Part shown: piece after piece, positions 1,572 to 33,960 of the stretch
How the letters are laid out: each line of letters starts with the position of its first letter
Numbering within the stretch: position 1 is the stretch's first letter
Source: Okamejei kenojei
Taxonomy: Eukaryota
Assembly (NCBI GenBank): GCA_035221665.1
Contig: JAVHYY010000112.1
Location: 558,001-622,000, forward strand
Direction: 5' to 3'
DNA: 64,000 nt
Notes under the pieces: generated by a model
The model's input: the letters and a program-made list of their open reading frames with translations, nothing else
Databases searched by the model: none
What the model was told of the DNA's origin: nothing
Program-made: the position numbers and the translations under genes

Positions 1572-1610
1572 ACTTTTTGTACGAGAATTTTACTGGTTTT
1601 GAACACCGTG
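1572..1610 (-). other. 23-RSS of V2
   Basis: CACGGTG + 23 nt + ACAAAAAGT. Confidence 0.92.
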
Positions 1611-2137
1611 AGCGTCGCTGCACACATATAAACCGCATAGTCGCTCAGCTGCAATTCTAAGATAGTCAGACTTGCGAATTTCGCCGAGTTCTCGTGGACT
1701 GCAGAGAAACGTGTTTTCGCAAAATCTGCCTTGTCGGCAGTTCCGCTGGTTTATTTCACCAGAATAAACTCAATCTGTGCATCTGAGTGTTGCCCATACC
1801 AGAGCAGATTATTGGTGCCGCTCCATGTTGTTTGGTAGGTACAGTTTAAAGTGACATTTCCTCCTTTCATCTCCACGACAGAAGACAACGGATTAGTGGC
1901 AGGATCCCCGTGGCCTCGACCTGAAAAGGCGTTTAAAACAATAATACGTGAGTGCGGCGAATATAACATACGGTAGAAATCGGCATCCGTGGAAAACAAC
2001 GATAAGGAAATGTGTGTGTTGCAAGTTTGGAAGAATGGATTCCTCGCGGTGGCAGGGTTAACATTATTTTTACCGCGAATAAAATCCTTACCAAAGAGGG
2101 ATGCAATGACGAGCAACGTCGCGAGGATATTGTGCAT
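1611..2137 (-). pseudogene. TCR V segment 2 (alpha/delta-like), in-frame stop
   Basis: 46-nt leader MHNILATLLVIASLF/G (2137-2092) with GTAAGG donor and TTTTCAG acceptor. V exon 1920-1611 reads GGNVTLNCTY...LLWYGQH...ILVK*TSGTADKADFAKTRFS...LTILELQLSDYAVYMCAAT, with TAA at 1753-1751. Confidence 0.9.
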
Positions 2138-5046: not shown

Positions 5047-6455
5047 ATGGGAGTTCTTGTACTCGTTGTACTGTGGATGAGGTTCATCGTAGGTAAGGCA
5101 GTTATGATTTTCCCCAATATAACTAACGTCCTGGGGGCTGGAGAGCAGACGAATTTCACAGTCACAGAGATTCAGAGGAAAGACACAGATATATAGAAAA
5201 CCCTGGATTGTCTGACCACTGGTCGGATCTGTTGGGGTGAGTAGCTTTCCCGTTGGTTAGGAAAGCCGTAGGCACCAATCACAAAATGAAATTATGATTG
5301 CATGGAGATGAAGACAATGCATTCACCTGTGCGTTATTGGCAGCAAATACAATGGAGCATCAAACTAGTTGGTCCCTGATAAACTGCGCGAATTGTGGAG
5401 TAACTTATTCATTGTCAATGGAAATATAAATATGCCAGTCGGCTGGAAAAGATGCAGCTATCACTTGCGACGAAATTGCCATGAATCGAGAGCCTGAGCT
5501 ACAGGGATAGTTTAGGCAGTCGTCAATTGTATTCCTTGGAGCGCAGAAGGTGAGTGGTAATAGTCGGACGTGTATACATTAGGAGGGGCATTGAGAGTAG
5601 CAGGAGAATGAAGATTCCGAGCGTAGGTTTTAGGTGCGAGCATAAATGGCCACTTCTTCCAAAACGGGCAGTGTGTATATGGACCGAGCTACAAAATGAT
5701 GTAGGTGAAACTGATAGCTGAATCTGGTGTCAGGGGTCATGTGGGGAATTCAGAATAATGGGTTAGGAGGGAGAGATATATCAACCGTGATCGAATGGCG
5801 GAGTACACTTGATGGACCGAATGGCCCAATAGTGTTCCCATCACTTATGACCTGATGCGCTTATGACAATAACAGCATTCAGAATAATTTTGAACTGGCA
5901 ACGACAAGACAACTTTTAGAGGGATTTGAGGCAAACATGGATACAAAGATCATGTTAAGATTGGGCAGCTCGATCGAGTGGTTGTGTCTGTGTTGTTTGA
6001 TTCAATGGATCTCCGCATCAGATCCACTCGTGGAGTAACACATATGCTATCATCTGCACTGTAATGAAGTATGTTAACTTGTATGTCAATATAATTGCGC
6101 GCTTTCCCGCCGATGAGGATTGTATTCAAGTTACGACTAATGTTCTTATTTCGTGTCCCAGATCTCAGCAATGCCGATTCAGTGACACAACGAGAGCCCG
6201 CCGTCAGGCGGATGGAGGGCGATCATGTCACTTTTATTTGCCAGTGAAGCTTATTATTTATACTGGTATCGTCAGTACCCAGGAAGAAGGCCCGAATTCG
6301 TCATGTGGAGAGACACTGACAGCAAGTATGACTTTCAAGCGGATTTCGATAAAGGCCGCTTTGTTGATGTGATGGATAAGACAGCGAGAGAGTATAGACT
6401 GACCATTCCTGGGCCACGGTTGTCCGATACAGCGGTATATTACTGCGCTGGGGCT
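5047..6455 (+). pseudogene. TCR V segment 3 (delta/alpha-like), frameshifted
   Basis: 46-nt leader MGVLVLVVLWMRFIV/G (5047-5092) with GTAAGG donor; acceptor at 6160-6161. V exon DLSNADSVTQREPAVRRMEGDHVTFICQ, then a frameshift near 6245, then SEAYYLYWYRQYPGRRPEF...KGRF...YRLTIPGPRLSDTAVYYCAGA. Confidence 0.92.
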
Positions 6456-6494
6456 CACAATGATGGGTGCGAGCTAAATCCTCGTACAATAATT
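6456..6494 (+). other. 23-RSS of V3
   Basis: CACAATG + 23 nt + ACAATAATT. Confidence 0.88.
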
Positions 6495-16464: not shown

Positions 16465-16509
16465 CACATCTCTGACCGACTCCGCCCTGTATTACTGCAC
16501 TTTCCAAGG
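16465..16509 (+). pseudogene. TCR V segment 4, 3' remnant only
   Basis: TSLTDSALYYCTFQG directly followed by a 23-RSS; the 5' part is replaced by CR1. Not in the ORF track. Confidence 0.85.
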
Positions 16510-16548
16510 CACAGCGATGGAAAGTAGCTTCATATCAGTACGAAAACT
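16510..16548 (+). other. 23-RSS of V4
   Basis: CACAGCG + 23 nt + ACGAAAACT. Confidence 0.85.
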
Positions 16549-31864: not shown

Positions 31865-32572
31865 TGTGTTTCTAGTGCTGTGGCGGTTCTCCTCCAGCTG
31901 CACCACAGGGATGGCCCACTTCGCAGATAAAAGCTACGCATGCCTAACGCATAGTCAGTTTCATCGAAAGGTAGTGTTCCGGTTACTTACCATGAAAGAG
32001 CATGACCTTCCTGCCTGGTTTGTGTACCTGGGATTCCACTCTTCGACTATGGATGCGGCTCTCAGCAGCATCTCTTGTAAATCACGTAGCTCTCACTCCC
32101 CATTCCACACTCGTAACAAGGGCACAATCGTTCCTGTCCTCACCTTCTACCCTACCAGCCGTCACATGCAATAGATAATCCTCCGACATTTTCGTCACAT
32201 GGAACGGGATCCCAGCACTGGCCAAATCTTTCCATCTCTTCCCTGTCCAATTTGTCCCTTCCCACAAAAAAACACCCTCTCCCCGGTTTTTCCCATGCAG
32301 CAGCATAAACATGCTTCACTTGTCGCTTTACCTTCCTATTGACTCCAGTCTTTCAAGGTCCGGCAGAGGTTCACCTGCACCTTCTCAACCTCATCTATTG
32401 CATCCGCTGCTCTATGTGTCAGCTGCTCTACATCGGTGAGAACAAGTGTAGGCTTGGGGATCGCTTCGTCCAACAGATTCGCTAAGCTCGCAATTCCCAC
32501 CCAGTTTTCCCGGTGACTCAGTACTTCAACTCCCCCTCTCATTCTGAATCCGACATTTCTCCACCATGGGCA
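31865..32572 (+). mobile_element. Penelope-like element fragment (RT C-terminus and GIY-YIG endonuclease)
   Basis: RQRFTCT..., LIYCIRC, LLYIGENKCRLGDRF in broken frames. Confidence 0.75.
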
Positions 32573-32639
32573 AGGCCAGTTCATCATCGAGAGCATCGAA
32601 CCCGCCGACCCGGCGGTGTATTATTGCGCGACATATGTA
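32573..32639 (+). pseudogene. V segment 5, 3' remnant
   Basis: GQFIIESIEPADPAVYYCATYV followed by a 23-RSS; 5' part replaced by the Penelope fragment. Confidence 0.85.
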
Positions 32640-32678
32640 CACACTGAAAGAAACCGCGGGGGGCCCCACACAAAAACG
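32640..32678 (+). other. 23-RSS of V5
   Basis: CACACTG + 23 nt + ACAAAAACG. Confidence 0.88.
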
Positions 32679-32720
32679 TTTCTCCTGTTTACAGCTGCTG
32701 CCGGCCCTGATAGCGCCGGT

Positions 32721-32759
32721 TGTTTTTGTGCAGGGACAGCCAAACTACTTGCCTCCGTG
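32721..32759 (-). other. 23-RSS of V6
   Basis: CACGGAG + 23 nt + ACAAAAACA. Confidence 0.8.
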
Positions 32760-33048
32760 GGACTCAACCCGCCGTCAAACACCACGGAGTCTCCCAGCTG
32801 CGTTCCAGACATTGTTCGCGAGATGGTTAACTTCGAAAGATCAAGCGGCGTCGAAAACCGTGTCCCTGTATGTTTCGCCACCTCGCTATACTTGTGTAGG
32901 AGCAGAGGAAATACTATGGAGTCACCGGAAATCTGTCGGTAACAGAATATATTCGGCTGGGTGCTGATAGTTGTGTAATAGCAGTGGATCTGGATATCGG
33001 CCCCTTCATTTGCACTGATGGCAGACGCGTTCTGTTGCACGTAGTCTC
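32760..33048 (-). pseudogene. TCR V segment 6 (alpha-like), open frame but core Trp and second Cys lost
   Basis: GDYVQQNASAISANEGADIQIHCYYTT..NIFCYRQ...RFSTPLDLSKLTISRTMSGTQLGDSVVFDGGLS; leader not identified. Confidence 0.82.
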
Positions 33049-33099
33049 CTGTACCGTACAAATTAATGAAAGAATGAATGAATATGTTTACTGGCCAAG

Positions 33100-33960
33100 C
33101 ATTCACATAAAAAGAATTTGCCTTGGTGCTACGCCCGCAAGTGCCAACATGACATGCAGTGACAGTTAATAATGCCACATAAAATATTAAACATTAATAA
33201 AAAAACATTATCGATTAGACGTGTGAATTAAATAAAATACCGGAGCAAAAGGAGGCTACAGATTATTGAGTAGAGCTACTGGTTATTGAGTAGAGCTACT
33301 ACTCGTGGGAAAAAAAACTGTGTTTATGCCTGGCTGTGGCTGCTTTGAGTTTCCGGAGTCGCCTTCCAAAGTGATATAAAGAATTTGTGGTCAGCATGAG
33401 AGGGGTCAGAGATGATCTTTCCCGCTCGCTTCCTGGCCTTTGCAGTGCACAATTCGTCAATGGAGGTAAGGTTGCAGACAATAACCTTCTCTGATCGGAC
33501 GAATCGCTGCAGGCTCCTGATGTCGTGCTTGGTGGCTGAGCCAAACCAGGCCATGATGGAGAAGGTGAGGACAGACTCTGCCTTGGCCATAGAGAATTGG
33601 ACTATCATTGCCCGTGGCAGATTGTACTTCCTCATCTGCCGTAGTAGGTACATCCTCCGTTGTGCCCTTTTGTCTGTGGATTCGATGGTAGCGTCCCATT
33701 TATGGTTCTTGGATATTATTGTTCCCAGGAACTTAAAAGACTCCACAGATGGGACGGCGGTTTGTTAATGATGAGTGGGATGAGGGGAGGAGGAGCTCTC
33801 CTAAAGTCCACAATCAATGTCACTGTCTTATGAGCATTCAGCGATGGCACCAAGCGCCAACTGTGTCATTTCCTGTCTGTAGGCAGATTCCTCCACATCC
33901 TGGATCGGTACAATGAGGCTTGTGTCATCCAGGTGGTACAGGGACATAGATTATAGCCAA
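33100..33960 (-). mobile_element. Rex1/Babar-like LINE 3' part
   Basis: YADDT-like ..PDDTS, ESFKFLGTIIS...KRAQRRMYLLRQMRK...ESVLTFSIMAWFGS. Confidence 0.7.

Follow-up and report, generated by a model that had tools for sequence, protein, structure and literature searches.

Two V segments that lie tail to tail in the genome of Okamejei kenojei, with facing 23-RSSs a few dozen nucleotides apart, raise the question whether such a pair is kept as a unit or has been carried along as its array was duplicated. The preliminary description of the locus had suggested a conserved paired V cassette. The window, i.e., the whole stretch of 64,000 nucleotides that was analysed (G000:C176:558001-622000), was scanned in six frames and for RSSs. 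Contig C176 was fetched whole (726 kb), as were C988 (532 kb) and C1046 (98 kb), together with 90 of the 526 kb of C241, and genome searches covered 2.76 Gb. From other samples, contigs of 4 of the 19 listed runs were compared with the window, the differences being those in the rows listed. They include run X4, which shares its organism label with the best-matching runs and comes from a different sample and study, and runs X7 and X10, which carry two other organism labels.

The facing signals and the state of the two segments

The locus is composed of the following features (window positions):

32311..32560, no strand: high-copy interspersed repeat adjoining the plus-V stump upstream; 3978 candidates genome-wide, depth up to about 1e6
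32559..32573, plus strand: left side of the deletion junction, with GG microhomology, as compared with C988:483798-484488
32574..32639, plus strand: 3' stump of the plus V, 66 nt, 22 codons, end of FR3, from a very divergent V
32640..32678, plus strand: 23-RSS of the plus V, CACACTG/23/ACAAAAACG, heptamer at 32640, nonamer end at 32678 (heptamer CACAGTG in the C988 copy)
32679..32720, no strand: spacer of 42 nt, gap-free homologue of the 3' flank of a paralogous minus V, with one CAGCTG E-box
32721..32759, minus strand: 23-RSS of the minus V, CACGGAG/23/ACAAAAACA, heptamer at 32759, nonamer end at 32721
32760..33058, minus strand: TRAV-like minus-V exon, a pseudogene with an open frame that has lost Trp41 and Cys104
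33051..33272, no strand: high-copy repeat, by depth, at the expected site of the minus-V leader

The RSS scan recovered both signals as described, the plus-strand YYCATYV-CACACTG-23-nonamer ending at 32678 and the minus-strand CACGGAG-23-nonamer starting at 32721, and the gap between the nonamers is the claimed 42 nt. Since the 12/23 rule bars two 23-RSSs from joining each other, the two signals cannot recombine with one another, which the preliminary description had also stated. Its phrase "two V segments" is not borne out in the sense of two V genes: both 23-RSSs are real, and the segments themselves are a 66-nt stump on the plus strand and an exon without Trp41 and Cys104 on the minus strand.

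Measured against the features of a functional V (leader, full exon, Cys23, Trp41 and Cys104), the plus V of the window falls short. Relative to C988:483798-484488, the window lacks 691 nt, comprising the remainder of the repeat, the leader, the intron and FR1 to mid-FR3, so that a putative deletion would have taken most of the plus V. None of the X4 contigs listed has the stump's own letters; the only listed plus-V contig of this run has the C988 letters and continues past 32574, and the plus-V contigs of X7 and X10 likewise continue past this point. The DNA upstream of the stump was also considered as a decayed V, which is ruled out by its identity as a high-copy repeat: positions 32300-32560 gave 3978 first-look candidates in the 2.76-Gb genome, 40 of which were scored at 81-89%. 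No Pfam family matched the repeat at 32311..32560, which resembles a Penelope-type GIY-YIG end. At 16472-16548 (+) the window has one more V that is reduced to a short 3' stump and its 23-RSS; the C988 counterpart of this V (465194-465499) is open.

The minus V reads CYRQ for WYRQ and FDG for YYC; without Trp41 and Cys104 it does not qualify as a functional V, and its letters are identical in the contigs of X4. No leader exon was found for it by a test that is weak, having also missed the leaders of some open relatives. In X7 and X10 the minus V retains Trp and Cys, but a base is missing at 33015 from the one contig that covers it in each of the two runs. We considered whether the open frame of the window had been restored after a frameshift shared by all copies, and rejected this, as the deletions differ (33015 in X7/X10, about 33032 in C988).

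The coding ends are 122 nt apart in the window and 92 nt apart in the C988 copy, which makes these the tightest of 23 convergent neighbours; the others are one RSS-less fragment at 210 nt and 20 pairs at 1.1-44 kb. On C176 alone, the window pair is the tightest of 11, the next having 1105 nt between coding ends. Under a rough exponential null drawn from the 20 wider gaps (mean 10.4 kb), a gap this small would be expected with about 12% probability among 11 junctions, and one such gap among 23 with about 24%, so that by this rough null the tightness is unusual but not extreme. The smallest gap between tandem V neighbours is 636 nt. Tandem neighbours would need room for a promoter, a leader and an intron, which convergent ones would not, and tail-to-tail neighbours can be this close because none of these must fit between them.

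Copies of the pair and the reach of the layout

On C988, positions 484138-484922 are colinear with the window pair and 87-89% (about 90%) identical to it. There the plus V is full length, with a leader, a GTAAGT donor, a 97-nt intron, an acceptor, Cys/Trp/Cys and CACAGTG/23/ACAAAAACG, and its only lesions are two +1 insertions, both in homopolymers. These frameshifts may be assembly errors, and given that the assembly is rich in homopolymer indels, the segment may be a functional, very divergent V; as a possibly intact member of a family without a close protein record, it is the best lead to come from this locus. The facing minus V of C988 has lost 27 nt of its RSS and one base in FR1 (at about window position 33032). 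Another contig of X4 shows the 23 substitutions and 27 gaps that set C988 apart from the window, and the C988 copy agrees with X4 records 10 and 12 in the number of differences.

How much weight a single indel can bear is a general matter in these contigs. Among the 141 Vs with a scored RSS, 83 are open with Cys/Trp/Cys and 58 are broken; 37 of the 58 have a close open relative, and in these 57 of 87 one-nucleotide indels sit in homopolymers. Some broken Vs show 7-12 small indels each and many show clusters of one-base indels, a pattern that fits uncorrected long-read error; pseudogene calls from indels alone are therefore unsafe here. Such clusters, resembling long-read error, occur in many Vs of C176, C988, C1046 and C241. 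Between them, these four contigs contain the V array in no fewer than three overlapping versions, with 88-98% identity and nested duplications. For hundreds of kb C988 runs parallel to C176 with an identity of about 88-90%, and it additionally carries two copies of the far end of C176; for both reasons we judged a simple allelic relationship unlikely and a duplicated block more likely.

In a second, older pair, a relative of the minus V has a decayed plus relic opposite it; a DNA search finds only two copies of this pair, C176:325.68-326.35k and C988:314.15-314.74k. The acceptor and FR1 of the relic match the plus V at 71% over 63 nt, and for its first 110 nt the plus V is the best of 197 V loci in both copies (57.5 vs 41 for the next, and 48.5 vs 40). 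In 300 shuffles the highest score is 70, which the C176 relic exceeds with 83; the C988 relic, at 51.5 against 55.5, does not beat its shuffles, and at full length it does not have the plus V among its top five V loci. The plus RSS of the relic is deleted. A remnant plus-RSS in the flanks of the CACGGAG family as a whole was also considered; one member scored 30.5 as compared with up to 28 for unrelated RSSs, which does not support it. On C176, the facing minus V has an open exon and an RSS, and a clean leader was not found. It is identical to the minus V of the window at 184 of 308 positions; a pairing of the two (the older one at 326038) as sisters is weak in the tree (88/6, long branches). 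From this DNA identity of about 60%, it follows that the layout predates a duplication old enough to have eroded about 40% of the DNA.

The spacer points the same way. Compared with the minus-V flanks of the older pair, that of the window is identical at 25/42 and 27/42 positions without gaps (median 11 over 141 flanks), its length is 42 and 43 nt in the two old lineages, and its CAGCTG E-box, a motif found in only 10 of 100 flanks, is retained in the older pair too. Between C176 and C988 the spacer is identical at 41 of 42 positions. The list of motif matches holds no CTCF-core motif within the 42 nt.

As possible grounds against a conserved cassette, the preliminary description had named uniqueness to this site, a local deletion and misassembly. 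Uniqueness does not hold: there is a copy on C988, an older paralogue of the pair exists, and X7 and X10 carry both RSSs. Misassembly fails as an account of the spacing: contigs of X4 equal the window at 307/307 (32681-32987) and 166/166 (32965-33130) positions, those of X10 cross 32664-32800 and those of X7 tile 32574-32828 without gaps, and in X7 and X10 both RSSs stand at the same spacing. Nor does a local deletion explain the spacing, though one may account for the putative loss of 691 nt from the plus V. Genome-wide, a pattern of nonamer, gap and reverse RSS gave 5 matches at 4 loci, with the window locus matched on both strands, against 1+1 in the control; this pattern misses copies without an RSS, and the other three loci are counted by the pattern alone.

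What was proposed as a conserved paired cassette is thus inherited and recurrent as a layout; a conserved cassette in a functional sense is not supported, since at least one partner is broken in each copy seen. Three of the four genomic copies no longer have the RSS pair and none of the four has both partners intact, while in X7 and in X10 the only contig that covers the minus V shows it frameshifted. The lesions differ by copy, with the Trp and Cys losses in the window, a -1 nt change and the RSS deletion in C988, and another -1 nt change, at 33015, in X7/X10. The organisms of the other runs are close (contigs 83-95% alike to the window), and the spacing shared with X7 and X10 therefore shows inheritance, not deep conservation.

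Origin of the pair and class of its members

We consider it most probable (roughly 70%) that this is a broken TCR alpha/delta V pair, likely set by one old germline rearrangement and then carried along passively when blocks of the array were duplicated. A single inversion or deletion in the germ line would have brought the plus-V nonamer to the end of the minus-V flank; because the whole spacer corresponds to flank of the minus-V family, the breakpoint probably lies at the end of the plus-V nonamer, about 40 nt past that of the minus V. RAG cuts at heptamers, and a break at a nonamer thus makes a RAG joint unlikely. In their intact state, the two Vs would have joined to a D or J with a 12-RSS independently of each other, one by deletion and the other by inversion, like the Vs of Ig kappa. 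After duplication, the partners would have decayed independently. In the window lineage the minus V would have been lost and the plus V kept longest, until the later 691-nt deletion also took most of it in the window, while in the lineage of the older pair the plus V and its RSS would have been lost and the minus-V exon retained. In favour of passive copying, mixed orientation is the rule in the array, and the V at 16472-16548 of the window is also cut to a stump. A trend that leans toward constraint, and against passive copying, comes from the plus 3' end, RSS and spacer, which show 8 differences in 147 positions as compared with 170 in 1718 for the flanks (p=0.08, not significant). The possibly functional plus V of C988 also weighs against this reading, as do the C988 relic's failure to beat its shuffles, the weak sister pairing of the two minus Vs and the absence of the stump among the X4 contigs listed.

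The strongest alternative, in our estimate an unlikely one, is a selected two-V unit in which the facing RSSs either compete for RAG or share a short accessibility element, the CAGCTG E-box, such that the spacing is kept and duplicates resolve to one partner. It would account for a spacer length that stays at 42 and 43 nt in the two old lineages and recurs under three organism labels, for the near-identity of the spacer between C176 and C988, for the E-box in both pairs and for the reciprocal retention of V exons. However, no copy has two intact partners, the organisms compared are close, conservation above the flanks is not significant, CAGCTG occurs in only a tenth of the flanks in any case, and reciprocal loss has even odds by chance. 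Slightly less probable again is a compound proposal: that the plus V belongs to a functional, single-copy and deeply divergent TCR alpha/delta family, that the unit is ancient in elasmobranchs, and that 23-RSSs about one RAG footprint apart share an accessibility element and exclude each other, so that each duplicate keeps one partner. If true, it would offer a natural test of competition between neighbouring RSSs.

For the minus V, the description as alpha-like is borne out: the 60 listed of 119 PDB matches are TCR alpha chains, and in a tree of 83 open Vs plus the two pair members (97 columns) it falls within a local TRAV-like family at 91/99; against the Pfam V-set model it reaches an E value of 0.0076, below the curated cut-off. 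The two segments do belong to different families, as had been thought, the plus V being about 27% identical to the minus-V family and standing in a separate place in the tree. No intact relative of the plus V was found in the fetched contigs or in the search of its own genome, no close match in protein searches, where word-based searching with short pieces is weak, and no named family could be assigned to either V. Five of its 10 weak remote matches were looked up: one TCR alpha V, one TCR beta V and three unnamed or Ig-like.

That the plus V came from another receptor class (TRGV, IgH-like TAILV or NAR-TCR supporting V delta) and moved into the array is doubtful, and a shade less probable than the compound proposal. 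A supporting V delta of NAR-TCR has a NAR V-D-J directly upstream and no leader of its own; the plus V has its own leader, at 97 nt, and no NAR-like V upstream in our catalogue. Its identity of about 30% to any local V and its long branch (1.61) would suit an outside origin, as would its joining a supporting-V-delta-like clade at 97/88, a placement that is unsafe given the long branch in a tree of local Vs. Of the remote matches, the best that aligns well, at 47% over 41 aa, is a named TCR alpha V and the top-scoring one a TCR beta V array, which argues against that origin. Both Vs have the 3' 23-RSS and the setting, a V array with NAR-TCR-like cassettes, by which TCR alpha/delta Vs are assigned. 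V domains of intermediate type are reported in the antigen-receptor complex (PMC12227049) and would again suit an outside origin.

That an assembly error, or a local deletion confined to this site, produced the facing RSSs is very improbable: the contigs are small and repeat-rich with many indels, and the stump form is absent among the X4 contigs listed, but X4 is identical to the window over both stretches, X7 and X10 cross the spacing gap-free, and the C988 copy has its counterpart in X4 records 10 and 12.

The surrounding array and known systems

The window sits in an elasmobranch TCR alpha/delta V array. The fetched contigs hold 197 V-like loci, 150 on the plus and 47 on the minus strand, with the 23 convergent neighbours among them. 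A NAR-type V, D and J with a supporting V lie at C176:507-510k, in the order that NARTCR has in the TCR delta of cartilaginous fish. NAR-TCR-like cassettes, which combine a NAR V, D and J with a supporting V whose CDR1 contains a cysteine, are present at C176:507.3-510.5k and 663-676k, on opposite strands, and at C988:429-432k and C241:442-468k. NARTCR belongs to cartilaginous-fish TCR delta (PMC6795676, PMC12227049). Conventional TCR D, J and C segments were not found on C176, C988, C1046 and the 90 kb of C241 by a J scan that overlooked NAR Js and is not exhaustive, and PF09291 had no match in the genome.

Several other segments of the array deserve mention. Two more Vs lie in the window at 1572-1940 (-) and 6160-6494 (+), one with an in-frame stop and one frameshifted with a weak RSS. 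At C176:315320-315603 (L069:5320-5603) there is another open V, very divergent (branch of 2.2) and apparently single, whose RSS is perfect and which faces a decayed V 1.1 kb off. As judged by a CTCF core motif, 50 of the 141 V RSSs have a predicted CTCF-core-like site no more than 50 nt past the nonamer. In 42 cases the site stands at +29 to +31, and the orientation is always the same, with none reversed (background 90/50000); many of these Vs are related. The sites lie at C176 18-177k, 359k and 701k, C988 95-246k and 327k, C1046 1-5k and C241 430k (e.g., L056, L153, L159-L172). In mouse, CTCF placement near the RSS is typical of Igh and not of Tcra (PMC5859386, Table 2).

The layout is thus real and inherited, its segments are broken, and the V array around it is an ordinary one of mixed orientation. 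What the pair illustrates is that elasmobranch TCR alpha/delta V arrays are of mixed orientation and evolve by block duplication and decay, for which the pair serves as a marker. More useful may be the by-products, a divergent and possibly functional V family and a CTCF-like motif at a fixed position behind many V RSSs. If distant sharks had kept both partners intact at the 42-nt spacing, this would point to RSS-level co-regulation of V usage.

Among the titles and abstract openings of the literature searched, none concerns so tight a V pair. The locus resembles the elasmobranch TCR alpha/delta translocon with NARTCR in its array of 23-RSS Vs, its NAR-type V-D-J with a supporting V and its divergent V types, whereas the portions of those accounts consulted (PMC12227049, PMC6795676) say nothing on how the Vs are oriented or on a tail-to-tail pair this tight. 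With the V families of nurse shark TCR alpha/delta (PMC5931798), it shares a TRAV-like minus V, and it differs from them in a plus V without a close protein match. Ig kappa and zebrafish IgL are established cases of arrays whose Vs point both ways, and in the Ig kappa arrays of mouse and human about half of the Vs are inverted (PMC5859386 and PMC3014032). As in Ig kappa, Vs of both orientations here carry RSSs of the same type, and facing neighbours would join by deletion or inversion; unlike Ig kappa, this is a cartilaginous-fish TCR alpha/delta array, in which the facing RSSs are only 42 nt apart and both partners in the window are broken.
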